A stretch of 64,000 bases of DNA from an uncultured bacterium (GCA_963701085.1 OY969561.1:960001-1024000); one strand, 5' to 3'; positions 22,081 to 64,000 are shown, numbered from the stretch's first letter. Made by a program: numbers and translations. Notes: generated by a model from the letters alone, not told the origin.

Positions 22081-22830
22081 ATGCCCTACCTCTATGTAGC
22101 CAACTGGAAAATGAATCTCTCTTTTACTCAAAGCATCAACTTCTGCAAAAATAATCTTGATGCATTACAACAATTATCAAGTGACACCACTGATATTGTG
22201 CTCTGCCCTTCTTTTATTGCACTTGCACCAATTGCTGAAATTTTTAAAAATCATTCTATTGCCATTGGCGCACAAGATTGTTCAGAACATGAATCTGGAG
22301 CCTATACGGGCGAAGTTTCTGCTGTATCACTTGCAGAAATTGGTATCAAATATTGCATAGTTGGCCACAGCGAACGACGCATGTACCATCATGAAACGAC
22401 TGAAAAAATTGTTAAAAAAATAAAACTTTTGTATGCAGACACTATTATACCCATTATCTGTATTGGTGAAGCACAAGAATATTTTGAATATAAAAAAACA
22501 TATACCATACTAACTGAGCAACTAGAACCAATACTTACTACAATAGCTCAGCAACAGGAACACTCAAAACATCTTATTATCGCCTATGAACCCATCTGGT
22601 CAATTGGCACTGGTATTATTCCAACGCCACAACAACTTACTGCTGTATGTGCATGGATTACGGAGCACATAAAACTGCACCTACCTGACCATACCATGCA
22701 ACTTCTGTATGGGGGCAGCGTTAATCAAAACAATATCGCAACATTAAAAAAAATACCGCCAATCAATGGTTTTTTGATTGGCGGTGCAAGTACTGATTTT
22801 GAGCAGTTTAAAAAAATAATTACCTTATAA
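22081..22830 (+). CDS. tpiA: Triosephosphate isomerase
   Basis: ANWKMN, GHSERR, AYEPIWSIGTG, YGGSV, GFLIGGAS; start moved to 22081 because 21973 lies inside the repeat. Confidence 0.95.
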   Translation: MPYLYVANWKMNLSFTQSINFCKNNLDALQQLSSDTTDIVLCPSFIALAPIAEIFKNHSIAIGAQDCSEHESGAYTGEVSAVSLAEIGIKYCIVGHSERRMYHHETTEKIVKKIKLLYADTIIPIICIGEAQEYFEYKKTYTILTEQLEPILTTIAQQQEHSKHLIIAYEPIWSIGTGIIPTPQQLTAVCAWITEHIKLHLPDHTMQLLYGGSVNQNNIATLKKIPPINGFLIGGASTDFEQFKKIITL

Positions 22831-23919
22831 ATCTTTTTTTATTAATTGACCAATACGATTACCAATAATTCTCTCAAGATTCTTTCGTGGAAAACCTTCA
22901 ATAGCTTTAAACGCTTTTGAATCTGATAAATTAACCAATTCAGCAACCCTTATGTAACTATTATCAAAAGCTTTTTGGCAAAGGTATGATGCTACTTCTG
23001 GTCTTTTGAATAACACTATCGCTTTACGATTATGAGCAACGTCTATCGGAAAAAATTCTGAATCAATAGGCATATAAGAATTAGTTACCATAGCACAATA
23101 ATTATCATGCTTATCACTAACTCTATACCTCTCTTCAAATATGCAAGAATAACCTCCTAGTAAAGCATTATTCTTATGTTCATAATCAACATAGTTATGC
23201 CCATTAACCCATTCTATACTTTCAATTTGTAGAGAATTGATTATCTCCCCTGTTTTCATATCCCATATTGAATGAATATTATTATCATCAGTTGCTCGCA
23301 AATATTTACCATTAGCAGACATACCTAAAGAAGATGGTTCTATATTTCCATGAGGACCATATAAAACAGTAAAATGTATATCCGATAACAACGTTGGCAT
23401 AATAGCTGTTAATTTCTTATTAATGTCCTTACCAAAAAATAATTTAGAAGCACCATTAGAAGCAATTCTTTGTGCGCCATTGTCATCACTATCAACATGC
23501 AACTCATCATCATACAGCTTATCGATAGTAAGACCTGTGATATCGTCTAATTCCTCAGTCTTTTTATACACCAAAGCCTGCATTAAATAATTCACGTACC
23601 AATGCTGCGCAACAAGCTTTTGCAATACACTCTTTTTATCCATATCTTTTGTAATATAGGACTCTATCTTATTCATCTCATCTGTAGCTTTTTGATACGT
23701 TAACAATTTATTTTTATACCAACTTACACATACACCAATCAATTTCCTAAAACAGACATCCTCATTAATTCCTAAATGATCTCTATCAATTATATCACGA
23801 ATATCCGCCGCATATATATCAGAATTAAGCTTGTTAACATCTTCATATTTCATTGCAAACAAACAAAAAGAGTTAAGCATTACAATATACAAAAAAGAAC
23901 GTTGTAGTCTTACCATCAA
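22825..23919 (-). CDS. Hypothetical secreted protein with a WD40-like segment
   Basis: Signal ...LFA-MK; SANGKYL...IWDMKTGE. Confidence 0.6.
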   Translation of the reverse strand: MMVRLQRSFLYIVMLNSFCLFAMKYEDVNKLNSDIYAADIRDIIDRDHLGINEDVCFRKLIGVCVSWYKNKLLTYQKATDEMNKIESYITKDMDKKSVLQKLVAQHWYVNYLMQALVYKKTEELDDITGLTIDKLYDDELHVDSDDNGAQRIASNGASKLFFGKDINKKLTAIMPTLLSDIHFTVLYGPHGNIEPSSLGMSANGKYLRATDDNNIHSIWDMKTGEIINSLQIESIEWVNGHNYVDYEHKNNALLGGYSCIFEERYRVSDKHDNYCAMVTNSYMPIDSEFFPIDVAHNRKAIVLFKRPEVASYLCQKAFDNSYIRVAELVNLSDSKAFKAIEGFPRKNLERIIGNRIGQLIKKDL

Positions 23920-23943
23920 AATATCCTTGAAAAAATTAATAAG

Positions 23944-24756
23944 TTAATCCACTTTTTCTTTTCCAACATCAACAATACTACTTTCCATTTCTGTCAATGA
24001 GATAAAATCCTTTGCTCTAAACCCATGTCGCTGATCTTCTTCTTCATCTGTTTCTCTTAAATAATCATTAATTTTTGAGCTCAAACCAAGATAACAACCC
24101 AACGGTATTAAAAGTGGAATAGGTATACATTCACTGGGAGGATTCAACATAAACCAAAGATAACATTGTAAAAAACAGCAACTATACATTCCGCAACATG
24201 CCACATTATGTCTTACATGGTCTTTATTATCCCATAAAGCATTCATGAAAACATCTTTCATATCCGATGGTTGTCCATAACATACATTGCGCGTCATACT
24301 TGTACCATATTTTTCAGCAATTTTTTGTCTTACCTTCAGCGGCAAACCTATAACACGTTCTGCCATTTTATGTGCAAAATATCTATCTCCCCCTTCTATT
24401 CTCAATTTTTCACTATTTTTTACCGTTTTCAATACATACCATAATGTTTGTTTATTCTCTTCATTTAAAAACGAAATATCACAAACACTCTCAAAAATTT
24501 TACTATATTTTGTTGTTATTTTTTGTTCAGATATTTTTACATTATTATTGTTTTTTTCAGACAAAAAATAGGGATATGCTCGGTCATCCTTTTTACCAAA
24601 ACAACAGAGACTTTTTTCATCTCTTCTCTTATATTCCCAATCTTGCTCTATCTGTCCAACTTGTTCCATAGCCTGCAGAGAAAAAGAATAGCTTAACAAC
24701 ATTACATTGAACGTAAAAAGATATAAAAAAGATTGCTTAATACATTTCACCATCAA
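23944..24756 (-). CDS. Hypothetical secreted protein with C-terminal TM hairpin (distant paralog of next two)
   Basis: SLQA-ME; QTLWYVL, LPLKVRQKIAEKYG shared with 24896 and 25876 proteins. Confidence 0.7.
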   Translation of the reverse strand: MMVKCIKQSFLYLFTFNVMLLSYSFSLQAMEQVGQIEQDWEYKRRDEKSLCCFGKKDDRAYPYFLSEKNNNNVKISEQKITTKYSKIFESVCDISFLNEENKQTLWYVLKTVKNSEKLRIEGGDRYFAHKMAERVIGLPLKVRQKIAEKYGTSMTRNVCYGQPSDMKDVFMNALWDNKDHVRHNVACCGMYSCCFLQCYLWFMLNPPSECIPIPLLIPLGCYLGLSSKINDYLRETDEEEDQRHGFRAKDFISLTEMESSIVDVGKEKVD

Positions 24757-24895
24757 AAACTCCTTTGGAAAAAATTAAAATGTTATCATTTTATAGCATA
24801 GGTATTGGAAAAAGTCATCGTTAAAAACACAAAAATCCAACAGATTGTTGGATTCTTAACCATGCTCTCAATGGACTTTTTTTTATCAAATACTT

Positions 24896-25801
24896 CTATT
24901 TTTGAACAATCTCATATTCCATTTCTTGCAACAAAGGAATTTTCACTAACTCAGTTCGATATTTTTTGTCTTCAGGTGTTTCATATAACCAATAAAGAAC
25001 ACTTTTTTTCAGACCAAAATAAAACAATATAGTTGTCACCACCATAGTTGTCACCTCTGAAAAATCTGGTACTGGCCCACCACCTAAAATCTCCCATAAA
25101 ATAGCTTGAGGTGGAATTGAAAGAAGAGATGCCATGCTTGCCGAGGAATATGCAAAAAAATTCTTAGCCTCTTCATCATCCAAGCTCCACCTAGCCCCGC
25201 ATATTGGTTGATTATGTAGACTACTTTCCATTGTTTCACCATACTTTTGAACAATTTTTTTTCTTATTGATAAAGGCAAATTCAAAATATTTTGAGACAT
25301 TTTTTGTGAGAAATCTTTATCTAATCCTTCTATTATGATCCGCTCTCTACCTTCTACATCATGCAACACATACCATAATCCTTGTTTCTGTTCTTTTTTT
25401 AAATACAAAATATCAAATGTAGTAAGATTAAAAACTTGTTGGCTTTCCTGTATTAATAGTTCATCAGGCGAAATCATTTCTGCATAACCTGCATAACAAT
25501 ACTCTAATATTTTATTTGTTACATCGCGTGGAATGCCTACATCTTGCATTGTTTTTGCCCAAAGCAATTCATCACAAAAAGAACGCTTTAATTGATCCCT
25601 ATCTTTTTTGGGTATAAAATATGGATATTGAGGCCTATTTCCTCCAGAAATGATTTTATCCAAACAACCTGTACGATATTCCCAATCCCCATAAACTTCC
25701 ATATCCTGCATTTCTTTTGGATCCCTCGCCCTTTTCATCGCTTGTAAAGAAATGGAAATAGTCACCAAGCCTATTATTAAAAAATTAACATGATGCATCA
25801 T
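24896..25801 (-). CDS. Hypothetical secreted protein, tandem duplicate A
   Basis: SLQA-MK; GIPRDVTNKILEY; highly similar to 25876-26784. Confidence 0.75.
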   Translation of the reverse strand: MMHHVNFLIIGLVTISISLQAMKRARDPKEMQDMEVYGDWEYRTGCLDKIISGGNRPQYPYFIPKKDRDQLKRSFCDELLWAKTMQDVGIPRDVTNKILEYCYAGYAEMISPDELLIQESQQVFNLTTFDILYLKKEQKQGLWYVLHDVEGRERIIIEGLDKDFSQKMSQNILNLPLSIRKKIVQKYGETMESSLHNQPICGARWSLDDEEAKNFFAYSSASMASLLSIPPQAILWEILGGGPVPDFSEVTTMVVTTILFYFGLKKSVLYWLYETPEDKKYRTELVKIPLLQEMEYEIVQK

Positions 25802-25875
25802 AAAAAACCTTACATCCTAAACTGTTGCATATAATGTAAAATGTTCCCAATGGACTTTTTTTTTATCAAATACTT

Positions 25876-26784
25876 CTATTTTTGAACAATCTCACATTCC
25901 ATTTCTTGCAACAAAGGAATTTTCACTAAATTAGTTCGATATCTTTTTTCTTCAGGTGTTTCATATAACCAATACAGAATACTTTTGTTCAGGCAACAAT
26001 AAAACAATATAATTGCAGAACAACGTTGTTCTGCCCCAAAACCTAAAGCATCCCATAAACAACTTTGAAGTGGAATTGAAAAAAAAGATACCGCTTTTGC
26101 CAAGCAAGATGCAAAAGAAGCCTTATTTTCTTCATCATCCAAGCACCCCCTAGCCCCGAATCTTGGCGTATTATGTAGACTACTCTCCATTGTTTTACCA
26201 TACTTATGAACAATTTTTTTTCTTATTGATAAAGGCAAACTCAAAATATTTTGAGACATTTTTTGTGAAAAATCTTTATCTAATCCTTCTATTGTAATCT
26301 GATTTCTATCCCCTACATCATGCAACACATACCATAATGCTTGTTTCTGCTCTTTTTTTAAACACAAAACATCAAGTGTAGTAAGATTAAAAACTTGTTG
26401 GCTTTTCTGTATTAATGGTTCATTAGACAAAATCATTTCTACATAACAATACTCTAGTATTTTATTTGTTACATCGCGTGGAATACCTACATCTTGCATT
26501 TTTTTTGCCAAAAGCAATTCATTGCAAAAAGAACGCTTTGATTGATCCCTATCTTTTTCGGGTACAAAATATGGATATCGAGGCCTATTTCTTCCAACAG
26601 TAAATTGATCCAAAACACCTGTATGATATTCCCAATCCCCATAAGATAGTCTTCTTGCTTCTATAGCCAGCATTTCTTCTCTCGTTCTTTTCATCGCTTG
26701 CAAAGAAGTGGAAATAGTCACTAAGCCTATTATTAAAAAATTAACATGTTGCATCATAAAGAACCTCAAAAATATAGTAACCAT
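25876..26784 (-). CDS. Hypothetical secreted protein, tandem duplicate B
   Basis: Long identical stretches with A; likely start at MMQHVNF. Confidence 0.75.
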   Translation of the reverse strand: MVTIFLRFFMMQHVNFLIIGLVTISTSLQAMKRTREEMLAIEARRLSYGDWEYHTGVLDQFTVGRNRPRYPYFVPEKDRDQSKRSFCNELLLAKKMQDVGIPRDVTNKILEYCYVEMILSNEPLIQKSQQVFNLTTLDVLCLKKEQKQALWYVLHDVGDRNQITIEGLDKDFSQKMSQNILSLPLSIRKKIVHKYGKTMESSLHNTPRFGARGCLDDEENKASFASCLAKAVSFFSIPLQSCLWDALGFGAEQRCSAIILFYCCLNKSILYWLYETPEEKRYRTNLVKIPLLQEMECEIVQK

Positions 26785-26820
26785 TCTATTAATATCACGA
26801 ATTATATCATATTTTAGTAA

Positions 26821-26906
26821 ACATTAAAAAATTACACATCAATGGCTTTTTAATTGGCAGTGCCAGTACTAATTTTGAGAGCTTTGCGGAAATTATCACA
26901 CAATAA
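26821..26906 (+). pseudogene. Displaced duplicate of tpiA 3' end
   Basis: Reads INGFLIGSASTNFESFAEIITQ* vs tpiA INGFLIGGASTDFEQFKKIITL*. Confidence 0.85.
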
Positions 26907-27150
26907 TCCAACAGCCTGTTGAATTATTAAACATTCTCCCAATCGTTTTTTTTAAGCATATTTTATGCAAAAAGTCTCACAAACTGTGAGACTTTTAAAC
27001 ATGCTGTTAATCGCTACTTTTGATAATATTTATATATAGAGTCCCACAAGCTGTGGGACTCTTAAATATGCTTCCAATCATTATTTTAAACATATTTATT
27101 CAATTATCCCACAGCTTGTAGGACAAATAAATATTCTCCCAATCGTTATT
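26902..27150. repeat. Four tandem 65-68 bp units each centred on a palindrome
   Basis: Palindrome centres at 26915, 26983, 27050 and 27115, each followed by taaaYatKctYYYaatc. Confidence 0.8.
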
Positions 27151-27325
27151 GACATATGCTATGATAATAAAAAAATTTCATTCTAAGGACACCGCTAATA
27201 ATCACCAAAAAAGAAACCTGCACCAGCAAAAAAACCAACCAAAAAAACTAAAAAACCCTAATTTTATAAAAATTTTAAACATGCTATACTCACACTAATC
27301 ACTACAATAATAAGAAGGAAAATAT

Positions 27326-27649
27326 ATGTTATACGGACTCTTACTAACACTGTACCTCACTAATTGCTTTTTTCTCGTCCTCATTATTCTCATGCAAAAA
27401 GGAAAAAGTGGCTTAGGCTTGGGCGGCCTTGGTGGCGGTGCTCAAATGCTTTTTGGTGGTAGCGGCGGACAAGATCTTTTTCAAAAAATTACCTGGGTGC
27501 TTGGTACAATTTTTATATCTGGTGCAATGTTACTTTCTCTCATGAAATCATCAGAACATAAAAAATTCAGATATCTTGCTTCTAACAAAACAATAACTCA
27601 GCAAGTTGCTCAACAAAATACGCCTACATCAACAGAAGAGTCTGAATAA
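27326..27649 (+). CDS. secG: Preprotein translocase subunit SecG
   Basis: ILMQKGKSGLG..GG..LFGGSG..LFQKITW. Confidence 0.9.
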   Translation: MLYGLLLTLYLTNCFFLVLIILMQKGKSGLGLGGLGGGAQMLFGGSGGQDLFQKITWVLGTIFISGAMLLSLMKSSEHKKFRYLASNKTITQQVAQQNTPTSTEESE

Positions 27650-28481: not shown

Positions 28482-29277
28482 ATGAAAAAAGAGAACTCCA
28501 GCAAAACCAAAATTAAAATTATCGATTTACAAAAAGAATTTGAGGGCCATTGGGTTACTCGAGGAGTCAATCTCGATATCCCTGAAGGATTAATGACGGT
28601 GATCATTGGTCGATCAGGCGAAGGTAAATCAGTATTACTCAAGCAAGTTATTGGGCTCATTAAGCCAACATCAGGAACTATTATTGTTGATGGCATGGAT
28701 ATCACCAAACTGTCTGGTGATGAATTAAATGAATGCTACAAAAAATTTGGCTATGTATTCCAGTTTGCAGCACTTCTTGATTCACTTCAATGTTTTTGAA
28801 AATATTGGCATAACGCTTATTGAACAAGGCATATCACATGCGCAAATTTTGCCTATTGTTAAAGAAAAATTAAAATTAGTACAATTATCAGAAGACACCT
28901 TAGAAAAATATCCCTCAGAACTATCTGGTGGTATGAGAAAACGTGTTGGATTAGCGCGCACACTAGTCGCTAATCCTGAAATTATTTTATACGACGAACC
29001 TACAACCGGCCTTGACCCTATCACTTCTCGCGTTATTCACGAACTCATGTTTGATATGCAAAAACGTCTCAAAATAACCTCTGTTATTATTTCTCATGAT
29101 GTGGAAACATTTAAATATGCAGATAAAGTTGCGCTGCTGCATGATGGAGAAATTAGATATTTTGGTGATGCAAAAACAATATGGGAATCAGATAATCCAT
29201 ATATCTATCAATTTATCCGTGGATTAACTGAGGGTCCCATTACTAAAGAAATTACTTATTTTAAAGATAAAGAGTAG
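28482..29277 (+). CDS. mlaF: MlaF family ABC ATPase (frameshift near 28790)
   Basis: [41 protein letters not shown]. Confidence 0.88.
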
Positions 29278-29300
29278 CCGATATACCATTTTTCTTTAAA

Positions 29301-30236
29301 TTACTGTCTAATTTTACCACCATGCTTTTCAAACAAACTAATGATGGCAGTAAGTGTGTCTTTTTCATAAGACATTACGTGATCACGATCTAATCTTTTG
29401 CATGCTGAACTAAGAGGAGTATCTCCATTCTCATTTGTCGCATTAATTAATTCAGGAGCAGCTTTAAGTAATAACTTACCAATTCTTACATAATCAACAC
29501 TGCTTACTGAATAGCTCCATCCACAACAAACAAGCTTATGCAATACACAATCCCCAGTTAGAGTTTTTCTTTTTTTTGCATCAACATTGTGAGTCAGATA
29601 AAACTCTATCAATTCGGGCGAACAATGATGTAAGATAGTGTACCATAAAACATTTGGCTCATGATAGCCTTCTGCATTCACATCAACACGATCAATAAAC
29701 ATTTCTAATATATCAACATTTTTTATAACAAACCAATCTGGATCTTCATATAAACCTTGCTGATTTGGATTAGCATTATTCTCAAATAACGCAGCAATCA
29801 TCTCTTTATCTTTTCGATATATTGCTCGCTGAAGTAAAGAATCCCTGCTGCATACAGCATTATCAGCACCTGCATACACTAATAAGAATGCCGCACGGCG
29901 TTTATTCCAATACGTTATATCATTCATACTTTGTAACAATTTTTTCATAACTTTATTTTTTTCTGCAATATTGTAGTTTTTACAGAATTTACCGACCATA
30001 GCAGGTGATATCAGTTCATTAAAATGCTTGCAGGTAGTGCTTAACGCTAAAGTAGTTTTAACAGTATCTTCTAAGAATTTTCCATTACAGATAATTGGTA
30101 TTACCATCTCATGAGGCAAGTCTGGCAATGTAAGTGTCCTTTCCATGCCAGATATATGCATAGAAGTCATTAAAAAAGTCATTGCTAATAATGCAGTAAC
30201 AGTAATAGTCTTGCTCGTCATGTAAAAATCTTTCAT
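29301..30236 (-). CDS. Secreted ankyrin-repeat protein with N-terminal F-box-like motif
   Basis: Signal ...ISG-ME; LPDLPHEMVIPII...LSTTCKHFN; ankyrin motifs NANPN, VDVNA, GDCVLH, NENGDTPL. Confidence 0.8.
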   Translation of the reverse strand: MKDFYMTSKTITVTALLAMTFLMTSMHISGMERTLTLPDLPHEMVIPIICNGKFLEDTVKTTLALSTTCKHFNELISPAMVGKFCKNYNIAEKNKVMKKLLQSMNDITYWNKRRAAFLLVYAGADNAVCSRDSLLQRAIYRKDKEMIAALFENNANPNQQGLYEDPDWFVIKNVDILEMFIDRVDVNAEGYHEPNVLWYTILHHCSPELIEFYLTHNVDAKKRKTLTGDCVLHKLVCCGWSYSVSSVDYVRIGKLLLKAAPELINATNENGDTPLSSACKRLDRDHVMSYEKDTLTAIISLFEKHGGKIRQ

Positions 30237-30257
30237 TAATTATGATACAAATATTAT

Positions 30258-30315
30258 GTGGATTAACTGAAAGCTCATTACTACAGAAATTTCTTATTTT
30301 AGAGATAAAAAATAG
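30258..30315 (+). pseudogene. Displaced duplicate of mlaF 3' end
   Basis: gtggattaactga..attacta.agaaatt.cttatttta.agataaa..tag aligns with 29219-29277. Confidence 0.8.
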
Positions 30316-30317
30316 TT

Positions 30318-30839
30318 TTACTTTTGAAAATCTTTGTATAACATACTCGGCTGGATGCCACGATTATTTTGGTATTTATTGCTGGAATATGTTACATAAT
30401 CACCTTCAATGGTGTGATAAAAAATTTGGCATATTTCAACGCCAGCATAAATACGCACTGGTCTTACGCAGAATATTTCTAGTGTCCAATAACCGCGAAA
30501 CCCAACATCACCAAAACCAGCAGTAACATGAATAAAGAGACCCAAGCGGCCAATTGACGAACGTCCCTCAATCATAGGAACTAATGTATTTGTTTTGGTG
30601 TATTCAACAGTTCTACCCAAATAAAGTTGGCCAGCTTCTAATAACAATCCTTCTTCAGGAATAGTAATTGTCTTAATTTGATGCTCTTTTTTCATATCAA
30701 GATGTGGCTCATCATACACCAATAATTCATTATGCAAGCGTAAATTATAACTGTTTGGACCAAGCTGAGACAGATTAAATGGCTCTATAAAAAGTTCTTT
30801 TCCCAAGCGCCGTCTAATTTCATTTCCTGAAAGAATCAT
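30318..30839 (-). CDS. dcd: dCTP deaminase
   Basis: MILSG, PNSYNLRL, EGRSSIGRLGL, TAGFGDVGF, KYQN. Confidence 0.92.
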   Translation of the reverse strand: MILSGNEIRRRLGKELFIEPFNLSQLGPNSYNLRLHNELLVYDEPHLDMKKEHQIKTITIPEEGLLLEAGQLYLGRTVEYTKTNTLVPMIEGRSSIGRLGLFIHVTAGFGDVGFRGYWTLEIFCVRPVRIYAGVEICQIFYHTIEGDYVTYSSNKYQNNRGIQPSMLYKDFQK

Positions 30840-30928
30840 AACTCTCCTTGTTGAACTCATTAAAAGATCATGTTAACGTATATAATAAGTTAGCAGGATT
30901 ATTTTTTTAAGTAAAAAAGATACTGATT

Positions 30929-31921: not shown

Positions 31922-31927
31922 CTCTTT

Positions 31928-54074: not shown

Positions 54075-54329
54075 GTGGTGCATAACTCGCCATTTTTTCT
54101 TCCAATACATCGATTAGATCACTATAATTTTTTTAAAATGGGTGGTGCATAAGTGGTTGATAACTGGTTGATAACTCTGGAAATAGCTATTGGATCGATA
54201 CTTTTAGAGGACAATTGTTGAAAAGTTCTTTTTGATCGCACTATTCATTCGATGAAAAAATGATGAAAAAAAAGTTATGAACAAGTTATGCACCACTTAT
54301 CAACCACTTATGCACCACTTATGCACCAC
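54075..54329. other. Probable replication origin (oriC) with DnaA-box-like 11-bp arrays
   Basis: Nine TTAT(G/C)(C/A)AC-type units in two oppositely oriented tandem arrays; visible C-rich to G-rich switch of the + strand across this gap. Confidence 0.7.
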
Positions 54330-54384
54330 CCCTGAGCAATTCTGTGTGTAATTTGCATGCTTTGTAGCAGGCGACAGTTTTTTA

Positions 54385-57873: not shown

Positions 57874-57941
57874 TTTTTAATGACCTTTACAATAACCACT
57901 GTTTCTTGTTATGTTGTTTTTAATTAAAAACAGCCAGAAAA
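57874..57941 (+). repeat. Duplicate of M16 gene promoter region
   Basis: tttttaatga..ttt.caata.ccac.gtttct.gttatg.tgtttttaattaaaaa matches 58924-58991. Confidence 0.8.
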
Positions 57942-57961
57942 GCCTTTTAAGGAGAAAAAAA

Positions 57962-58912
57962 ATGAAAAAAGTAATGAGTTATTTGTTTTTTTTATGTATA
58001 TCAATGAATATGCTTGTGGCTATGGAGCCGCAGAGAGATAGACAAATGGTAAATCTCAAATTGATAGATGATAAGAACAAAATTTATTCAATAGCGCGAT
58101 GGAAAGTGGTACAAGAATTATATCTAGATGCTACGATTAACATTCCTGGTATTACCGAACAAGAAATTTCATATTTTGATAAAGAATTAAACACAATTGA
58201 TTTACAAGCGATTCAAGAGAATAAAGAGAATAAAGATGAGTTAAAAAAAGAGATTAAAAAAAAGATTATACTACATCACCTTCCTGCGTATAAAAAAGTT
58301 TTTGATTATCTTCTCGTTTCCATGATTGCAGACAATATTCACAATGATCTCGTGAAATCAGAAAAAGCTTATTCATTTGAGCCAAAATCAGTAAAAAAGT
58401 TATCAATGCAAGATTTATATATACCACCGATAGCTAAATTAGGGACAGATACTTTTAATGGGAAATGTTTCTTAGTTAATGATCATTCAGTCAACCCTGT
58501 AATAACTTATATACCTCTTTCAACAATGATGTGTATGGCTAAAAATCGTACGAATTGTGTGGAAATATACAATCATAATAAACATTTATTTGAACATATG
58601 GGTACAGTGTCATATGATCAAATAAACATCAATGGACTTGGTGTTACTACTGATTTGAGGTATTTAGTAGCCACCTTTGATGATATGCTGGTATCTAAAG
58701 CAGAATTGTATAGCGATAGTGATCTTGATGCATACAAAGACATAACAAATAATATAAAATTAGCCGATATTTATCTGTTATTGCATTTGTATAAAGCAAA
58801 AGAACAAAAACTCCGCGCTGAATTGCATGATAATGAACGCGAGTATATTCGCAATTATTTGACTACAAATGAAAAAGGTAAGGAACTTATACAAAAACAC
58901 TTTTTGTCGTAA
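57962..58912 (+). CDS. Hypothetical secreted protein
   Basis: AAGGAG before ATG 57962; signal ...LVA-ME. Confidence 0.7.
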   Translation: MKKVMSYLFFLCISMNMLVAMEPQRDRQMVNLKLIDDKNKIYSIARWKVVQELYLDATINIPGITEQEISYFDKELNTIDLQAIQENKENKDELKKEIKKKIILHHLPAYKKVFDYLLVSMIADNIHNDLVKSEKAYSFEPKSVKKLSMQDLYIPPIAKLGTDTFNGKCFLVNDHSVNPVITYIPLSTMMCMAKNRTNCVEIYNHNKHLFEHMGTVSYDQININGLGVTTDLRYLVATFDDMLVSKAELYSDSDLDAYKDITNNIKLADIYLLLHLYKAKEQKLRAELHDNEREYIRNYLTTNEKGKELIQKHFLS

Positions 58913-58936
58913 GTTCCTTACCTTTTTTAATGAATT

Positions 58937-58965
58937 TTGCAATAGCCACCGTTTCTCGTTATGCT
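58937..58965 (+). promoter_or_regulatory. Sigma70-type promoter of M16 gene
   Basis: TTGCAA-17 bp-TATGCT. Confidence 0.55.
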
Positions 58966-59001
58966 GTTTTTAATTAAAAAAAGCGAGAAAATTCTTTTCT
59001 A

Positions 59002-61794
59002 GTGAGGTGGTCTATGCGTTCTTATCTTGTTAATTTAGCAGCTCTTGGGTATCATGTAATTCTTATAGGGTTAATCATAATATATGTGCCAATACTCGGC
59101 AATGATGCCATCAAAACAGAATCAGGAATGTACATGTCAGATCAAAAAAATATGATGCAACAGGCGGCATCTGTTTATCCACACGTTGAAAAAAGAATGT
59201 TAGATAATGGACTTACTATTCTTGTGCGTGAATCTCACGAGATACCAAAAGTGTCTTTTCAGATTTGGTATAATGTTGGTTCAAAAGATGAATTAACGGG
59301 TGAAAAGGGCATTGCGCATCTTATTGAGCATATGATTTTTAAAGGTACTGATACATTATCTGAATCAGATATTAATGTTCTTGTGCATAAGCTTTCTGGT
59401 AGTTGTAATGCATTTACTTCATATGATTACACGGGATATTTATTTAATTTTCCTACTCATCACTGGCATGAAGCTTTTCCTGTTGTCGCTGATTGTATGA
59501 CCAACTGCTTATTTGATGATGATATGCTTAATTCTGAAATGAAGGCGGTTATACAAGAGCTAAAATTATATAAAGATCAATATGAACGTTCTTTGATGGA
59601 AGAGATGATTGGTATGATTTTTGCTGATCATCCATATCATTTTCCTATTATTGGGTATAAACAAGATTTGTGGAGTGTTGCGGGTAAAGATTTATTATCG
59701 TTTTACAAAAAACATTATAAGCCTAATAATGCCACGCTGGTGATTGTTGGTGATGTTAATCCTGATGAAGTAGTAGACTTAGCAAATAAATACTTTGGTG
59801 CTATTCCAAAAGATCCAGAATATACAAAAAAAGAAAATTTCTTTCATCGTGACATCGCGTCAAAATCATTAACATTATATCGCGATGTTGCTCAGCCAAC
59901 GTTAGCATATGCATTTGTTGTGCCAGGAGCGGTTGACAAAAGAGATACAGCACTTGATATTTTTGAGTGGATTTTGGGCAAGGGAAAGAGTTCACGTTTG
60001 TATAAAAAATTGGTTAATGAAACTCAATTGGTAACGAGCGTCTCAACCGGTTTTTGGAATCTTTTTGATTATGGTATTTTCTTTATTTTGGCAGAGCCAA
60101 AAAACATAGAAGATGCGTCAGACATTGAACGTATTATTTTGGCAGAGTTAGATGATCTTGCAAAAAACGGCATTAGCCTTGATGAGTTTGAAAGAGGTTA
60201 TAAAAAAACACAAATGTCATTTTATAGTCTTTTAGAAGCGATTGAAGATCAAGCGTATGCAATTGGGCACACTTACTTGGCTACTGGTGATGAAAATTAT
60301 GTGTTTACGTCTTTAGAACAACCAGAAGAAGTTTTAAAAAAACAGATACAAGAAATTGTTAGCTCATACTTCCGCCCGGCAGTTATGCATAAAGGTTTTG
60401 TGCTTGAATTACCGGAATCTGAAAAAGGGGAATGGGCGGTATTGCAAGAAGAATCAGATAAGGAAGATGAGAAAATTCTTGCTGCGCGTATACGTTCAAC
60501 TGAAGTTGGTGGGGCGGTGTATGCAAAAACGGTTGATGTTCAATTGCCAGCACATTTTAATTTTCCTAAGCCAGAGACAATGTCTTTATCAAACGGATTA
60601 AAAGTGTTGTATCACAATAATGATATGACTCCCAAGATTAACATTATTCTTGAATTTAAAGCTCGTTCACATTACGATCCCCAAGATCAGCAAGGACTTT
60701 ACACATTTGTTGCTGATATGATGACCGAAGGTACAAGAAATTACACGAGTGAAGAACTCGCTGATGCAATTGAATCACGAGGGATGTCATTGAATGTATA
60801 CCCTGGTGGCATTTCTATGAAAATGCTCGAGGGTGATTTTGTTTTTGGTCTTGGTATTTTAAAAGAAGTTTTGACCAATGCAACATTTCCTGAAGATGAA
60901 ATAGAAAAAGTGCGCGATCAGTTGTTGACTGATATTAAACAGTATTGGGATGAACCACGTTCTTTTGTCAGTGATTTGGTGCGTAAAACTCTTTATAAAG
61001 ACCATCCTTATAGTAAACAAAGCATTGGAACTGAAAAATCTGTTTCATCAATGACGCGCCAAGATTTGATGGATTTTTATAAAAAATATATTTCTCCTTC
61101 TGGAGCTCGCATAGCAATTGTTGGAGACATAGAACAGTATGATTTACAGAATGTTTTAGAAACAGCTCTTGGCGATTGGCAGGGACCAGTTGTCAAAGAA
61201 TTGGATTATCCTCAACTGTCTCCGGTAGAAAAACAAGATGTAAATTATCCTATTAATCGTGATCAGGTTGTGTTGTGTTTAGCGCAATTATCAATTGCTC
61301 GTACACACCCTGATTTTGATAAATATCTATTATTTGATCAAATATTTGGTGGTGGAGCTCTTGGTTCTATGAGTTCACGTTTGTTTGATTTGCGTGAGCA
61401 AACAGGGTTATTTTATACTATTCGTGGATCATTAACTGCAGGAGCTGATGAGCAACCAGGTATGTTCCAAGTGCGCACTATTGTTTCTTTGGATAGACTT
61501 GTAGAGGCAGAAAAAGTTATCAAGGAAACCATTGATAATGTTGTTGATACGTTAACTGAACAAGATCTTGAAGAAGCAAAGGCTGCGGTGGTCAATACGC
61601 TTGTTGATAATTTTGTATCTAACAGTGATATTGCAAGCACATTCTTATATGTTGATCGTTTTAAATTCCCTGCTGACTATTTTGATAATCGTGCTGCACA
61701 AGTTGAACAAGTTACGCTCGATGAAATGAAGCAAGCGGTTAAGAATATTCTTGCATCAGACAAAATTATTACGGTGCGTGCGGGACGAGTATAA
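59002..61794 (+). CDS. M16 (pitrilysin/insulinase) zinc peptidase, two-lobed
   Basis: GIAHLIEHMIFKG (HxxEH), NAFTS, SSRL twice; start uncertain. Confidence 0.93.
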   Translation: MRWSMRSYLVNLAALGYHVILIGLIIIYVPILGNDAIKTESGMYMSDQKNMMQQAASVYPHVEKRMLDNGLTILVRESHEIPKVSFQIWYNVGSKDELTGEKGIAHLIEHMIFKGTDTLSESDINVLVHKLSGSCNAFTSYDYTGYLFNFPTHHWHEAFPVVADCMTNCLFDDDMLNSEMKAVIQELKLYKDQYERSLMEEMIGMIFADHPYHFPIIGYKQDLWSVAGKDLLSFYKKHYKPNNATLVIVGDVNPDEVVDLANKYFGAIPKDPEYTKKENFFHRDIASKSLTLYRDVAQPTLAYAFVVPGAVDKRDTALDIFEWILGKGKSSRLYKKLVNETQLVTSVSTGFWNLFDYGIFFILAEPKNIEDASDIERIILAELDDLAKNGISLDEFERGYKKTQMSFYSLLEAIEDQAYAIGHTYLATGDENYVFTSLEQPEEVLKKQIQEIVSSYFRPAVMHKGFVLELPESEKGEWAVLQEESDKEDEKILAARIRSTEVGGAVYAKTVDVQLPAHFNFPKPETMSLSNGLKVLYHNNDMTPKINIILEFKARSHYDPQDQQGLYTFVADMMTEGTRNYTSEELADAIESRGMSLNVYPGGISMKMLEGDFVFGLGILKEVLTNATFPEDEIEKVRDQLLTDIKQYWDEPRSFVSDLVRKTLYKDHPYSKQSIGTEKSVSSMTRQDLMDFYKKYISPSGARIAIVGDIEQYDLQNVLETALGDWQGPVVKELDYPQLSPVEKQDVNYPINRDQVVLCLAQLSIARTHPDFDKYLLFDQIFGGGALGSMSSRLFDLREQTGLFYTIRGSLTAGADEQPGMFQVRTIVSLDRLVEAEKVIKETIDNVVDTLTEQDLEEAKAAVVNTLVDNFVSNSDIASTFLYVDRFKFPADYFDNRAAQVEQVTLDEMKQAVKNILASDKIITVRAGRV

Positions 61795-61818
61795 ATATTT
61801 AATTTTTTATTGTTTATT

Positions 61819-61857
61819 ACGGGGAATTGGAAGTGTTTTTCCAATTCCCCGTTTTTT
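61819..61857 (+). terminator. Intrinsic terminator after M16 gene
   Basis: acggggaattggaa-gtgttt-ttccaattccccgt plus T run. Confidence 0.75.
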
Positions 61858-61879
61858 GATTTTTAAGTTATTATGCTGA

Positions 61880-62755
61880 TTATTTTATTTCTTGCTTAAC
61901 AAAAATGCGTATTTTGCTATCAAAAGATCCTGTTACTAATATATTTCCCGATGGGCCAAAGTGCATTGAAAGAACTTGTTTATCATGTTCCAGCATTGCA
62001 GTTTTAAGGTATGTTTCCAGATCAAAAATATGAACTTTATTATCACGTGATGCTATTGCAAGAAGTTTTTCAAAAGGGTCAAAGACAAGTGCGCTTACCG
62101 AACTGTTAAGTTCAAAAATTTTGATTTTTTCTTTTCTTTTAATATCAAATAAACATGCCTTGTTATTACCAGATCCTGTTGCAAGAAATTTTCCTGATGG
62201 GGAAACTGCTGTGGTAATAATCCAGCTGTTATGCTTAAAGGAGATGATTTTTTCATTTGTTTTGAGGTTGTTGATGCGCACTTTATTTTGAGATGATTCT
62301 ATCGATTTTACCCCGAGTAGATTATTATTATTATCAAAATGGATTGAGGTAATGGCTCCGTCATGAGCAAAAGAATCGATTCGGTTCAATGTTAATTCGT
62401 TTTCATCTTTTTTGATATCAAAGATACATGTTTCTGGTTTGTGTGATAGTGTTGCAAACTTTGTACCATCATGATTAAAACAAATTGATGTAATACCATG
62501 ATTAAAAGACAAAAAAGCCATTTTTTTACCCGATTGTAGATCAGATATGTATACCAGTTCAGCACAGGGAACAACAGCTAACAATCTTTCAGTAGGATCG
62601 ATGCACACTGAACTAATCCAACGATGGTCTTCAAATATTTTATCTAAATGCCATTGACCTGTTGATTTTACAGGAATAATTTTTTCAGACTCCATGCCGA
62701 TTAGTGTGCTATTTAAATAAAAAATGGTGAGAAAAATAATATTTTTATTGTTCAT
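61880..62755 (-). CDS. Secreted WD40-repeat protein
   Basis: Signal ...LIG-ME; repeats SPSGKFLATGS, FDPFEKLLAIAS, FGPSGNILVTGSFD. Confidence 0.85.
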   Translation of the reverse strand: MNNKNIIFLTIFYLNSTLIGMESEKIIPVKSTGQWHLDKIFEDHRWISSVCIDPTERLLAVVPCAELVYISDLQSGKKMAFLSFNHGITSICFNHDGTKFATLSHKPETCIFDIKKDENELTLNRIDSFAHDGAITSIHFDNNNNLLGVKSIESSQNKVRINNLKTNEKIISFKHNSWIITTAVSPSGKFLATGSGNNKACLFDIKRKEKIKIFELNSSVSALVFDPFEKLLAIASRDNKVHIFDLETYLKTAMLEHDKQVLSMHFGPSGNILVTGSFDSKIRIFVKQEIK

Positions 62756-62790: not shown

Positions 62791-62943
62791 TTACTGCTTT
62801 TTTGATTGTATCAATAATTTATGTAGTTGTTGAGCTGAATTAGTTAATATTTTTTGTTCATCGTTATTCAGTGGGATTGGAAGTGTTTTTTCAATTCCAT
62901 TCTCACCGAGTATAGCAGGTAGGCTGATGCACATGTCATATTT
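62791..62943 (-). pseudogene. Displaced duplicate of ldh/mdh 3' end
   Basis: KYDMCISLPAILGENGIEKTLPIPLNNDEQKILTNSAQQLHKLLIQSKKQ* vs same region of 63759-64000. Confidence 0.9.
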
Positions 62944-63054
62944 GATAATCGTGCTGAACAACTTGAAAAAATTACGCTTGATGATGTAAAAAAAGCAGTT
63001 AAAATATTTCTTAACTCAAAGAATTTGATTCCTGTCCGTGCAGGGTGAGTGTAA
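62941..63054 (+). pseudogene. Displaced duplicate of M16 peptidase 3' end
   Basis: FDNRAEQLEKITLDDVKKAVKIFLNSKNLIPVRAG*V* vs FDNRAAQVEQVTLDEMKQAVKNILASDKIITVRAGRV*. Confidence 0.9.
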
Positions 63055-63088
63055 GATTCGATCCAACTGTATTATTAAGATAATAGAT

Positions 63089-63700
63089 CTATAGTTCAAA
63101 GAATTTTGCTACATCAATAGTATCACTCGCCACTTTTGTGGTGACATGGTATCGTTTATATTCATAAACATACTTGAATGTTTCTAGTACTCGTTCATAT
63201 CCATACCACGTGTCTTGAGCATCATGTACTATAAAGATATCGGTATGTGAGCGTAAACGTTCAATATCAACTACGCGACGCAGTCCTGGAGTGTGATCAA
63301 TAAACACAATACTCCAATGCGTATCTGAACCAATAGTATCCCACGCATCTTCTCCAACACTAAACCATACATCGTTCCTCTCGCTGTACTTATCATATGC
63401 AGGTACATAGATAAACGTATGCCAATCACGCTGCATATCAATAAATAATTCGAGCCATACTCTATCTACATCAGTTGAAACAAGCATGCGTTTCATTGGC
63501 GCACATAATGCATGCAACATTGGTGTACTATAATCGCCACAACCCATTTCCAGTATGGGTCCAGTCGTATTGGCTGCTATAGTTGCCAATACAGGAAAAT
63601 GTGTTCCAAAACCATTAATGCCATTACGATACTCTTGCATGGAGTTGAATATAGAATGCGTAAAAAATAAACATACTGTTATTGATAATATTTTTTTCAT
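63089..63700 (-). CDS. Secreted class I SAM-methyltransferase-like protein
   Basis: MKKILSITV signal; ILEMGCGDYST motif I; IVFIDH; IVHD. Confidence 0.6.
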   Translation of the reverse strand: MKKILSITVCLFFTHSIFNSMQEYRNGINGFGTHFPVLATIAANTTGPILEMGCGDYSTPMLHALCAPMKRMLVSTDVDRVWLELFIDMQRDWHTFIYVPAYDKYSERNDVWFSVGEDAWDTIGSDTHWSIVFIDHTPGLRRVVDIERLRSHTDIFIVHDAQDTWYGYERVLETFKYVYEYKRYHVTTKVASDTIDVAKFFEL

Positions 63701-63758
63701 GACAGACTTTTCTTTTTTTAATGTGACGTCAGTTTGGTATAATAGTTGAAAATTTCTT

Positions 63759-64000
63759 TCAAATGCTACTACAGTGATCCCTTTTGTCAAACATGAATTT
63801 GAAAAGATTGCGTAATTGCTGCGCTGAGTCAATTAATTGTTTTTGTTCATCGTTATCAAGTGGGATTGGGAGTATTTTTTCAATGCCATTTTCACCTAGT
63901 ATAGCAGGTAGGCTGATGCACATGTCATATTTTTCATTATACACGCTTAACGGCATGACTAATTTTTGATCAAAAATAATCGCTTCACACATGCGTGCTA
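63759..64000 (-). CDS. L-lactate/malate dehydrogenase, C-terminal part
   Basis: EAIIFDQKLVMPLS...ISLPAILGENGIE...L..DEQ..L..SA..L. Confidence 0.85.
   Translation of the reverse strand, partial: ARMCEAIIFDQKLVMPLSVYNEKYDMCISLPAILGENGIEKILPIPLDNDEQKQLIDSAQQLRNLFKFMFDKRDHCSSI

Follow-up and report, generated by a model that had tools for sequence, protein, structure and literature searches.

Introduction

Islands that carry an integrase integrate at gene 3' ends, which they restore. A second process, insertion with long target duplication, was reportedly described by Nobusato et al. in 2000. As set out by Furuta, Abe and Kobayashi (2010; PMC2853133), restriction-modification genes can lie between direct repeats of variable length, each above 30 bp, with no mobility gene present; in that account the two repeats share about 93-100% identity but match the empty target less well, and most cases come from naturally competent species. 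Homology-facilitated illegitimate recombination (HFIR) during natural transformation (PMC3240628) is laboratory-defined, in Acinetobacter, Streptococcus and Pseudomonas; the papers cited for it by Kirchberger et al. (2017; PMC5361080) include de Vries & Wackernagel 2002, Prudhomme et al. 2002 and Meier & Wackernagel 2003. The same article discusses C-terminal displacement at Rhs, CDI and T6SS effector-immunity loci, for which HFIR was proposed, and cites Jackson et al. 2009 for Rhs.

The stretch of DNA analyzed here (64 kb, positions 960001-1024000 of a genome that is a single 1.2-Mb contig; hereafter the window) shares features with each of these systems. In it, accessory genes (cargo) lie between the resident end or promoter of a housekeeping gene (the anchor) and a displaced duplicate of that sequence (the relic). 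As in long target duplication, the inserts are flanked by direct repeats of the target that exceed 30 bp, vary in length and often span a start or stop, the target gene is kept intact, and Pfam found no mobility gene inside. The repeats differ from those described: they are 12-23% diverged in a pattern shaped by selection and, at 76-88% identity, are not near-identical at any of the four sites, and the cargo comprises leader-bearing ankyrin, WD40 and no-family proteins and one ParE-family gene. The likeness to HFIR would lie in one homologous anchor combined with one illegitimate join, in foreign DNA added beside a conserved gene without the enzyme of a mobile element, and in microhomology at the single readable junction, as HFIR predicts; the difference is that here the process is read from scars alone, between partners diverged by 12-23%, with an illegitimate join that would fall inside the anchor and so leave a duplicate behind.

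At Rhs and T6SS loci, successive insertions by way of the conserved part push older 3' pieces downstream, such that the stack gives the order of events, and comparable stacks extend from ldh (ldh, G2, X', WD40, X''; Table 1) and from tpiA (site A, below). There, however, the anchor is a toxin gene, and toxin tips together with immunity genes are what is displaced. Here the anchors are housekeeping genes (encoding TIM, an ABC ATPase, an M16 peptidase and Ldh) or a promoter rather than polymorphic toxins with immunity genes, a useless end of the housekeeping gene is displaced, and the cargo forms a gene of its own. As with integrase-borne islands, a direct repeat of a gene 3' end flanks the insert and the gene stays intact, but no integrase lies near the inserts, which are single genes of ~1 kb, and no shared attachment core was seen. 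The common site that marks each cassette border beside an integrase in integrons was likewise not found, the core being judged by eye.

Results

Self-BLAST of the window returned short direct duplicates at four of four sites, each pair enclosing one or more signal-peptide genes; the pairs are 59-121 nt long and 76-88% identical (E 2e-8 to 1e-36), and all are direct. The duplicated parts are the 3' ends of tpiA, mlaF, the M16 peptidase gene and ldh, plus the M16 promoter, and in each case one copy runs on without a break into the intact anchor gene or promoter, to which the other is homologous. The first-pass annotation had placed displaced duplicates at these same four sites, with coordinates within 1-2 nt of ours, and had called the anchor boundaries intact; the duplicates are real, but mlaF is not intact as assembled, having a 1-nt insertion near 28784. 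Two further relics were recovered, a third, partial copy of the ldh end (61794-61848) and a copy of the tpiA stop plus hairpin (24827-24885). The cargo proteins, with leader-like N-termini and in some cases ankyrin or WD40 repeats, are putative secreted proteins, and no mobility domain was found by Pfam in any cargo gene of the four sites.

Table 1 Anchors, cargo genes, relics and duplicated pairs in the window (positions counted from its first nucleotide).
Feature	Position	Strand	Basis and remarks
tpiA, anchor of site A	22075..22830	+	Pfam TIM E 2e-74; orthologue alignment; ORF as listed starts 21973, relatives align only from about 22075; resident duplicated end is the last ~90 nt, 22740-22830
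Site A cargo, four genes	22825..26784	-	g1 22825-23919, g2 23944-24756, g3 24896-25801, g4 25876-26784; leader-like N-termini in all four; no Pfam family for any
Short relic between g2 and g3	24827..24885	+	81% over 59 nt to 26898-26954, E 9e-8
Displaced tpiA 3' end	26817..26906	+	Self-BLAST, codon alignment
Hairpin array, four ~65-nt units	26906..27153	+	Repeat family D9, sequence
secG	27326-27649		Pfam
MlaF-type ABC ATPase gene (mlaF), anchor of site B	28482..29277	+	Pfam; resident duplicated end 29219-29277
Site B cargo, ankyrin-repeat protein	29301..30236	-	Pfam Ank matches E 8e-6 to 6e-5; leader-like N-terminus
Displaced mlaF 3' end	30257..30315	+	Self-BLAST; 1-nt deletion
dcd	30318-30860	-	
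comEC	56658-57779		Pfam; short, 373 aa, likewise in relatives
P', displaced M16 promoter region	57874..57948	+	85% to 58924-58998
Site D cargo h, 316 aa	57962..58912	+	Leader-like N-terminus; own terminator hairpin 58872-58927; no Pfam family
P, resident M16 promoter region	58924..58998	+	Conserved upstream of M16 in relatives
M16 peptidase gene, anchor of sites C and D	59002..61794	+	Pfam M16, M16_C; resident end H1 61681-61794
X'', partial ldh-end relic	61794..61848	-	80% to 62846-62898, E 5e-4; repeat family D16
Older site C cargo, WD40 beta-propeller protein	61880..62755	-	Pfam WD40 E 1e-26; leader-like N-terminus
X', displaced ldh 3' end	62791..62943	-	Frame intact, own stop
H1', displaced M16 3' end	62941..63054	+	Frame kept; one premature stop, two codons early
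Newest site C cargo G2, 203 aa	63089..63700	-	Leader-like N-terminus; no Pfam family; ORF listed as 63089-63832, actual start 63700
ldh	63759-64697, past window end	-	ORF and match to relatives' genes; resident segment X 63812-63932
tpiA end pair	22740-22803 ~ 26820-26879		81%, 64 nt, E 2.5e-8; self-BLAST
mlaF end pair	29219-29277 ~ 30258-30315		85%, 59 nt, E 5.9e-10; self-BLAST
M16 promoter pair	57874-57948 ~ 58924-58998		85%, 75 nt, E 5e-17; self-BLAST
M16 end pair	61681-61794 ~ 62941-63054		76%, 115 nt, E 9e-14; self-BLAST
ldh end pair	62823-62943 ~ 63812-63932		88%, 121 nt, E 1.5e-36; self-BLAST

Site A lies between tpiA and secG, which outside the genus are adjacent (30-100 bp apart). The order from tpiA is g1-g2, the short relic, g3-g4 and the longer relic; g3 and g4 share 70% protein identity, and g2 is a distant paralogue of both. 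By codon alignment the displaced tpiA end extends to a stop at 26906, the homologous position, with its frame kept and one in-frame 3-nt deletion. Between it and secG stands the hairpin array, whose stems vary among units yet remain complementary, and the short relic joins a copy of the final codons of that tpiA end to a single hairpin unit. Genes like g1-g4 occupy the tpiA junction also in relatives G002, G005 and G007.

Site B lies between mlaF and dcd, and the stop of the displaced mlaF end is 2 nt from that of dcd. The ankyrin calls for the cargo protein are all near the cut-offs (Ank and Ank_4 slightly above, Ank_2 slightly below); its orthologue (54%) adjoins dcd in G007. The site is nearly empty in G004 (90-bp gap), and in G006 it holds a displaced dcd end.

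Site D precedes the M16 gene, where P, the resident promoter region, is conserved 5' of M16 in G002, G004, G005, G007 and a metagenomic relative. The displaced P', in which hexamers with 17-nt spacing can be read, is 95 nt from the start of comEC, a gene already noted in the first-pass annotation, and now stands immediately upstream of h, which has an orthologue (63%) at the equivalent junction in G002. Five relatives have an empty site (121-245 bp; G003, G004, G005, G008 and G012), and in G004 and G005 a single promoter copy was seen.

Site C is the most elaborate, its order being M16 end, X'', WD40, X', H1' (foreign-type), G2, ldh. X'', the oldest of the ldh-end relics, is immediately 3' of the M16 stop and folds into a perfect hairpin where the M16 and WD40 genes converge. 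Orthologues of the WD40 protein (35-52%) are found in the equivalent place in G002, G005, G007 and L061; X' is 35 nt from the WD40 start, and in relatives the ldh end is about 3-48 nt from it. Resident ldh has a new 14-residue tail beyond the duplicated part. H1' lies 1.26 kb from M16, beside an unrelated gene, and its residues are of a type found in G003, G009 and G010 and absent from the closest clade. The two relics abut in reversed order at a 5-nt microhomology (62941), TATTT, common to the ldh and M16 ends; this is the only junction at which microhomology is readable, both parent sequences being available. The WD40 and G2 genes have no similarity by blastp or blastn, though their non-coding flanks are 76-88% identical. 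With dissimilar cargo, reversed relics and TATTT at the junction, site C cannot be explained as plain tandem duplication. A protein-atlas lead connects G2 to clusters named class I SAM-dependent methyltransferase, a candidate identity.

Gene order around the four sites is conserved in 11 relatives, with no cargo, other cargo or orthologous cargo at the junctions, which are thus the hot spots of variable cargo that empty sites and alternative cargo in related genomes had been expected to reveal; at the level of gene order, empty sites with a single repeat copy occur in relatives. G2 was found in none of the 10 other genomes of the genus and in 8 of 60 other genomes of the family; in the closest metagenomic contig (L060) it stands at a different locus with 86% identity. 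In the metagenomic relative, represented by two contigs (99.99% identical) from separate samples, the order is ldh-G2-WD40; it has a displaced ldh end of its own (40 nt, 92.5%), and the junction differs. The relative's G2 and ldh are each 74% identical to those in the window, which would also be expected from one old insertion with a later deletion and gene conversion. The donor allele M16-G2-ldh was not found. The length of the duplicated segments varies (40-150 nt), and it does so even where two lineages share cargo and anchor.

Differences between resident ends and relics, which the first-pass annotation had proposed to test for a synonymous bias, do show one: by codon position they number 26/14/38, and pN/pS over 123 aligned codons is 0.38 (bootstrap 95% 0.25-0.58), with none of 4000 replicates reaching 1. 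As 9.7% of replicates reach 0.5, the neutral-decay floor for one copy, the value is not cleanly below that floor, and the mlaF pair alone is near neutral (0.78). The displaced copy has a residue found in an orthologue at 25 of 36 amino-acid differences, whereas in 5000 simulations of random decay of the resident end this number averaged 7.8 and never exceeded 19. Together, the synonymous bias and the orthologue-like changes indicate that the displaced copies are not decayed resident ends and that the two copies derive from diverged lineages. The state of the closest clade is found in the resident but not the relic at 22 of the 36 differences and the opposite at 5, and half of the 22 departures match other species; judged by this asymmetry, the resident end did not simply leave the relics behind as fossils of itself.

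Resident and relic ends are 77-88% identical, comparable to orthologous ends among species (66-94%). The copies thus differ about as much as species of the genus, and the exchange partners, previously called strains, may have been more distant than that. In a single insert, divergence is 12% between the ldh ends but 23% between the M16 ends, and one uniformly diverged donor would therefore need an extra assumption, such as a relic from an earlier host. The M16 gene looks mosaic between lineages by maximum chi-square (none of 200 permutations reached the observed value in two of three triplets), a test that can mislead where rates differ between regions.

No tyrosine recombinase lies in the window, and six transposase families (DDE_Tnp_1, rve, resolvase, Y1, Mutator and IS110) were not found in the genome, in agreement with the earlier statement that the 64 kb lack an integrase or transposase. 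The genome does have three tyrosine recombinases of the Phage_integrase family (356925, 437751 and 575621), two of which, by size, may be XerC/XerD; neither a tyrosine nor a serine recombinase occurs in or beside the inserts. By eye, no common core was found among the duplicated segments, which are parts of four different genes. Also present in the genome are recA, dprA, comEC, MutS and MutL; ComEA (HHH_3) was not found there.

Discussion

We lean, if only slightly, towards reading the duplicates as scars of additive recombination between diverged lineages, with one homologous and one illegitimate join. A piece of DNA from a relative, with an accessory gene adjoining a conserved gene end or promoter, would pair with the resident copy of the conserved sequence, and its other side would be joined, at a microhomology of a few bases, to a point within the resident gene end and not past it. 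In this way the anchor would retain one working end, next to which the new gene would stand, while the alternative version would be displaced outward as a non-functional relic; a piece that was first circularised and then integrated by a single crossover would give the same product. Repeated events at one anchor would stack cargo and relics by arrival, the newest beside the anchor. Relics would be found at gene ends because only events that leave the housekeeping gene intact survive. Which lineages donated, which join came first and how the DNA was taken up are matters of inference; uptake may have been by natural transformation or by exchange between bacteria in one shared host cell. Several points count against additive recombination: anchors diverged by 12-23% are poor substrates for RecA pairing in a genome with MutS and MutL, pN/pS is not cleanly below 0.5, and the lack of a recognizable ComEA in the genome weighs against uptake by transformation. 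The unequal divergence of the ldh and M16 ends, the reading of microhomology at one junction only, the scarcity of scars in relatives, the equal identity of G2 and ldh to the metagenomic relative and the missing donor allele belong on the same side.

An unknown break-repair or replication-slippage process could instead have inserted each gene and duplicated 60-150 bp of the target in place, the copies diverging later. The layout matches that of the restriction-modification inserts (Furuta et al. 2010; PMC2853133), with long direct repeats across a stop or start and no mobility gene; four repeat spacings fall at 1039-1050 bp, and two cases elsewhere in the genome are 97-98% identical. We nevertheless regard this origin as unlikely given the excess of orthologue-like residues over simulated decay, the pN/pS of 0.38, the departure of the relic, rather than the resident end, from the closest clade, and the distance of H1' from M16, which a local process does not explain.

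Tandem duplication of a gene end with its neighbour, followed by loss or extreme divergence of one copy (birth-and-death), is a more doubtful proposition still, although local repeats at 600-6000 bp spacing are direct far more often than inverted (542 versus 49), the X'|H1' junction is shaped like a tandem-duplication joint, and the window holds true tandem paralogues (g3/g4, three genes at 40631-42235, and the pairs 1964/2844 and 19069/20193). Homologous genes lie within the repeat units only for g3/g4 at site A; g1, the ankyrin gene, h and G2 have no paralogue anywhere in the genome, and G2 is missing from all ten other genomes of the genus. The selected pattern of differences between copies and the dissimilarity of WD40 and G2 within similar flanks also speak against it.

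That selected pattern would be accounted for if the relics were remnants of full-length, functional anchor paralogues lately deleted, such as a second M16, and second M16 genes do exist: one between M16 and ldh in G004 (57% protein identity to the M16 of the present genome, G000), a 2.6-kb tandem duplicate in G009 (78% DNA identity) and others in several further genera. We consider such an origin improbable, and more so than tandem duplication, since no second tpiA, mlaF or ldh was seen at any relative's locus, H1' is no nearer to the second M16 copies (74-78%) than to the first copies of other species (67-81%), and neither the abutment of the ldh and M16 relics nor the position of relics exactly at cargo borders is explained.

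Site-specific integration in trans, integron-like or island-like, by one of the genome's three Phage_integrase-family proteins is highly improbable despite the stacking of cargo beside a fixed point, which is reminiscent of integrons, as none of the three is encoded in the window, segment lengths vary and no common core was seen by eye. Scarcely any weight falls, to the same degree, on an assembly artefact that stitched together two co-occurring strains with different cargo: relatives do co-occur, metagenome runs contain both exact and diverged pieces, frameshifts in essential genes point to assembly errors, and no public contig among those listed bridges 62941 or 57949, but an assembler would join at shared k-mers rather than at a 5-nt microhomology, the genome is a single contig, exact short public contigs bridge 61744-62119, 58853-59081 and 63623-63832 (one run may be the source sample), and the same kind of scar occurs in a relative in two independent assemblies.

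Returning to additive recombination, the genome has further 3'-end cases, at an ABC-F ATPase gene (97.6%, 82 nt), an ABC-3 permease gene (88%, 94 nt) and an H+-PPase gene (97%, 33 nt), where the cargo is a ParE-family gene. The 22 loci compared in 11 relatives held a single scar of this kind (G006), and the metagenomic relative adds another, so the route recurs, as had been claimed, though it is not frequent. Most likely, these structures record the exchange of genes with related species, no dedicated insertion enzyme being involved.

Displaced gene ends beside unrelated, leader-bearing genes

The genome is a single contig of 1.2 Mb with 37% G+C, and the window covers its positions 960001-1024000. 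Using sensitive self-BLAST of the window, we recovered each of the displaced duplicate ends listed in the first-pass annotation, with E-values from 2.5e-8 to 1.5e-36. They belong to four junctions, tpiA/secG (site A), mlaF/dcd (site B), M16/ldh (site C) and comEC/M16 (site D), where a conserved anchor gene is accompanied by a displaced second copy of its end or promoter region (the relic) and by cargo: genes g1-g4 at A, ank at B, a WD40 gene and G2 at C, and h at D. Three anchors have Pfam support (TIM; MlaE with the ABC ATPase; M16 peptidase).

Anchor ends, their displaced copies and related features (window positions)
Feature	Positions or length	Identity	Remark
tpiA end	22740-22803 and 26820-26879	81%	self-BLAST
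mlaF end	29219-29277 and 30258-30315	85%	self-BLAST
M16 upstream region	57874-57948 and 58924-58998	85%	self-BLAST
M16 end	61681-61794 and 62941-63054	76%	self-BLAST
ldh end	62823-62943 and 63812-63932	88%	self-BLAST
ldh ORF (-)	63759-64697		extends beyond the window
Third ldh-end copy, partial (X'')	61794-61848		immediately 3' of M16 stop; perfect hairpin there
Short copy of displaced tpiA stop with hairpin unit	24827-24885		between g2 and g3
ABC-F ATPase end	82 nt	97.6%	outside the window; cargo a 250-aa ORF
ABC-3 permease end	94 nt	88%	outside the window
H+-pyrophosphatase end	33 nt	97%	outside the window; cargo includes a ParE-family gene

Genes g1-g4, h and G2 matched no Pfam family, and searches with E up to 1 yielded nothing usable; the remaining enclosed genes encode ankyrin and WD40 repeat proteins. 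A protein atlas gave a functional lead for G2 only and nothing for h. All eight cargo proteins carry a hydrophobic leader ending in a small residue followed by Met and Glu, Lys or Gln, as scored by a lax home-made screen that finds the same motif in 183 of the 1127 ORFs of the genome; this leader could serve as an export signal specific to the lineage. The idea of a shared cargo family or cassette was rejected, the proteins being mutually unrelated and mostly without a paralogue. The repeat pairs at 57874-58998 and 29219-30315 are spaced 1050 bp and 1039 bp, near-equal to two pairs elsewhere (genome 740818-741948, 1049 bp; genome 529306-530446, 1048 bp); the four cargoes are unrelated, and the recurring spacing of about 1.05 kb may be a mere effect of gene size.

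Several other repeats lie in the window. The pairs 1964-2086/2844-2966 and 19069-19153/20193-20277 were rejected as displaced ends, since they are 5' portions of genes duplicated in tandem. A leader-bearing protein of about 160 aa is encoded by three tandem paralogues at 40631-42235 (65-91% nucleotide identity between units), the first apparently disrupted, with only an 86-aa ORF listed. A unit of about 65 nt, an 8-9 bp hairpin with a conserved tail, occurs in four tandem copies before secG (26906-27153) and once more after g3 (24833-24875); its stems vary but preserve their base pairing, suggestive of a conserved structure (a terminator or small RNA, for instance). Between a thioesterase gene and tpiA lies a palindromic element of about 148 nt (21921-22068; arms of 74 nt, the central 74 nt 97% self-complementary), which is missing at the same junction in the relative G002, has partial copies at 10596-10640 and 31927-32009, and is possibly REP-like or a small mobile element of the non-autonomous kind. 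The thioesterase gene itself (21016-21930; Pfam E 3e-56) encodes a palmitoyl-protein thioesterase, a family known best from eukaryotes, and adjoins tpiA also in G002, G004 and G012.

Relics resemble gene ends of another lineage

Most displaced copies retain their frame and stop. The tpiA relic keeps the same stop and has one in-frame 3-nt deletion, and the ldh relic is a fully open frame ending at a stop of its own; in the M16 relic a single premature stop falls two codons early, and the mlaF relic has a 1-nt deletion. Over 123 aligned codons of relic and resident, pS was 0.41 and pN 0.16, a ratio of 0.38 (bootstrap 95% 0.25-0.58) that reached 1 in none of the replicates and 0.5 in 9.7%, which bears out the synonymous bias between copies proposed as a check in the first-pass annotation. 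The relic carries a residue of an orthologue at 25 of the 36 amino-acid differences, compared with a mean of 7.8 and a maximum of 19 when the resident end was randomly mutated by an equal number of changes in 5000 trials. At 22 of the 36 positions the resident agrees with its closest clade (G002, G005 and G007) and the relic differs, the reverse holding at only five; at 11 of those 22, the relic residue is present in other species. Together, the pN/pS ratio, the orthologue residues and the clade comparison argue that the relics are neither products of random decay nor simple fossils of the resident end; judged by their sequences, they are gene ends shaped by selection in another lineage. Relic and resident ends share 77-88% of nucleotides, similar to orthologous ends of different species (66-94%); the exchange between strains proposed in the first-pass annotation would rather be one at species-level divergence.

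The last 30 codons of resident tpiA have a pS of 0.26-0.43, versus 0.57-0.62 in the rest of the gene, alike against G002, G005 and G007. This points to local constraint rather than a G002-specific patch in the sequence, and the idea that a G002-like donor recently supplied the resident end was rejected because the signal is not G002-specific.

The four junctions vary in content among relatives

The nearest species-level genomes are distant (58-67% amino-acid identity in TpiA, 66-84% in M16), and the surrounding gene order is conserved as nusA-udg-C11 peptidase-comEC-[D]-M16-[C]-ldh-rpsA and thioesterase-tpiA-[A]-secG-mlaE-mlaF-[B]-dcd-moxR-gspC-gspD. Five relatives (G003, G004, G005, G008 and G012) have an empty site D of 121-245 bp, where G002 has an orthologue of h (63%) and G009 an ankyrin-like gene. 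At site B, G004 has an almost empty gap of 90 bp, G007 an ank orthologue together with a further 1.5 kb, G006 h-like genes, and other genomes different cargo. A WD40 gene occupies site C in G002, G005 and G007; G004 has a second M16 gene there. Site A measures 30-100 bp outside the genus versus 0.67-4 kb within it. With variable content amid conserved order, the four junctions are hot spots, in keeping with the proposal that cargo is swapped there. A single comparable scar, involving the dcd end of G006, was seen in the 22 loci taken from 11 relatives, and G002, although it shares g1-g3 and h, showed no relic of either the tpiA end or the promoter. Tandem M16 genes were seen in G009 (L041 6645-12096; 78% over 2.6 kb, the first copy split in two) and in G004 (L036 6326-11699; 67% identical).

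At site D the repeated 75 nt contain a predicted sigma-70-like promoter, with two hexamers at 17-nt spacing, which is conserved upstream of M16 in G002, G004, G005, G007 and a metagenomic relative. The displaced copy, P', lies 95 nt from the comEC start, the promoter's place in relatives with an empty site; h now stands downstream of this putative promoter and carries a ribosome site and a terminator of its own.

Between udg and nusA (54140-54331), clustered 35-nt inverted repeats contain motifs resembling DnaA boxes. The cumulative GC-skew minimum of the genome falls at window position 54,000, and similar inverted repeats occupy the same place in all nine relatives whose fetched loci cover this gap; the cluster is likely to be the replication origin. 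None of the four sites is more than about 32 kb away from this predicted origin.

Site C probably records the arrival of G2

The order at site C is the resident M16 end (H1), the old, partial ldh-end copy X'', the WD40 gene (-), the ldh-end relic X', the M16-end relic H1' (+), G2 (-) and ldh. X' lies 35 nt from the WD40 start, compared with about 3-48 nt for the ldh end of relatives. X' and H1' meet at 62941-62943, where TATTT is common to both parent sequences (a 5-nt joint), and the resident ldh has a new 14-residue tail.

In the simplest reading, a resident M16-WD40-ldh locus would have received a piece with an M16 end, G2 and an ldh end from a genome carrying G2 between M16 and ldh. One join would be homologous, within ldh, and the other illegitimate, placing the donor M16 end onto the resident ldh end; equivalently, a circle closed at the X'/H1' joint could have been integrated by one crossover. 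A mirror model, with the M16-end relic native to the recipient and M16 plus the WD40 gene supplied by the donor, was rejected: over its whole length M16 is similar to that of the closest clade and of the metagenomic relative, with no part like that of G010, and H1' is therefore the incoming piece rather than the original end. Plain tandem duplication fails because the WD40 gene and G2 share no similarity.

G2 was found in none of the ten other genomes of the genus and in 8 of 60 other genomes of the family. Three of its loci in other genera adjoin an orthologue of the gene at genome 1043717-1044634, about 20 kb from G2 in the studied genome, and the nearest metagenomic copy (contig L060, 86%) sits at a third locus.

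M16 (59002-61794) itself looks mosaic, its central part (alignment nt about 240/680-1600) nearer G002 and G005 and its flanks nearer the metagenomic relative. For two of the three triplets, none of 200 permutations reached the observed value, a hint of inter-lineage homologous recombination that regional rate differences could mimic.

The metagenomic relative, assembled as two contigs from two samples that differ at 1 base in 11,954, is closer to the studied genome (ldh 74%, M16 84-86%, RpsA 94%). Its order is ldh-G2-WD40-WD40b-another leader gene-M16; the last 40 nt of ldh are repeated (92.5%) just before the WD40 start, a hairpin follows G2, and the M16-end piece is absent. With cargo and anchor the same and the junction different, either the event was a separate one or a deletion followed. 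Between the two organisms the resident ldh ends share 76% identity, versus 88% (studied genome) and 92.5% (metagenomic relative) between relic and resident, so the scars postdate the separation of these organisms, barring gene conversion that homogenises the copies.

A stitching artefact of assembly is unlikely because of the 5-nt joint and the replication of the scar in this relative. Public reads came from four runs in three studies of lake or freshwater metagenomes, giving short contigs at depth 2-4, one run possibly being the source sample. Exact pieces span 61744-62119, 58853-59081 and 63623-63832; among the pieces listed, none spans 62941 or 57949, so that these junctions are neither confirmed nor refuted by them. 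Odd joints from 57976 to 61557 and from 63004 to 61768 were set aside, as they occur in one or two low-depth contigs at 85% likeness. Some conserved genes are split, namely mlaF (about 28784, a 1-nt insertion versus G005), aspS (about 44110, a frame change) and the secretins at 34800-34897 and 39184-39271 (frameshifts or stops), reflecting either residual assembly indel errors or real gene decay.

Other cases and recombination genes in the genome

Across the whole genome, local repeats at 600-6000 bp number 542 direct versus 49 inverted, most being tandem paralogues. A screen of short local repeats for pairs in which one member lies at an ORF terminus and its partner between genes yielded 25 direct and 9 inverted matches, among them several palindromic elements and several paralogue 5' regions; the screen undercounts, because it missed the tpiA pair. 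Candidates near 206 kb, 208 kb, 211 kb, 1,138,987 and 1,151,686 were dropped as palindromic elements that match in both orientations. At genome 1079712-1080400, the ParE-family toxin gene lies between the H+-pyrophosphatase stop and the 33-nt end copy, with space for a small upstream partner.

The genome has no match to DDE_Tnp_1, rve, resolvase, Y1, Mutator or IS110. The first-pass annotation saw no integrase or transposase in the window; the three tyrosine recombinases that the genome encodes are all distant from it. RecA, DprA and a short ComEC are present, and ComEA (HHH_3) was not found. The genome also has MutS and MutL, an argument against ready recombination across a divergence of 12-23%.

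Discussion

The scars are real features of the window, and their interpretation as cassette exchange largely holds. We slightly favour additive recombination between lineages, with one homologous and one illegitimate join. A broader reading is tentative and rather doubtful: members of the genus, which is host-associated, might swap single secreted-protein genes across species by enzyme-free, one-sided recombination, with cargo always docking at a conserved housekeeping gene end or promoter, relics of foreign ends (such as the M16-end piece on G2) travelling with it, and proximity to the origin (about 32 kb) perhaps favouring the process. Since docking would always be against the anchor, a hot spot would then be a layered record of acquisition, newest beside the anchor.

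Insertion with long target duplication, described for restriction-modification genes, mostly in competent bacteria, gives a layout equal to these scars, although its repeats are near-identical there, unlike the diverged ones here (PMC2853133). Homology-facilitated illegitimate recombination, as outlined in PMC3240628, is the same mechanism as proposed here, and the stacking of relics has parallels in T6SS effector modules ("sequential displacement") and in Rhs C-terminal displacement (PMC5361080). Compared with these systems, the anchors here are housekeeping gene ends and a promoter, the cargo consists of single leader-bearing genes, the partners are at species-level divergence, and the genome is small and host-dependent-looking. 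A literature search by title did not find the pattern for housekeeping anchors or such organisms, which does not prove that no report exists.

Transposases and phages are often missing from the small genomes of host-dependent bacteria, whose sets of secreted eukaryote-like proteins vary between species. The scars extend to ordinary housekeeping anchors a pattern already described for toxin loci and restriction-modification genes, and offer a concrete, testable route for such genes, through a homologous and an illegitimate join at conserved gene ends. A displaced end with differences of the selected type is a marker, searchable in any genome, of recent acquisitions, their order of arrival and their donor lineages.
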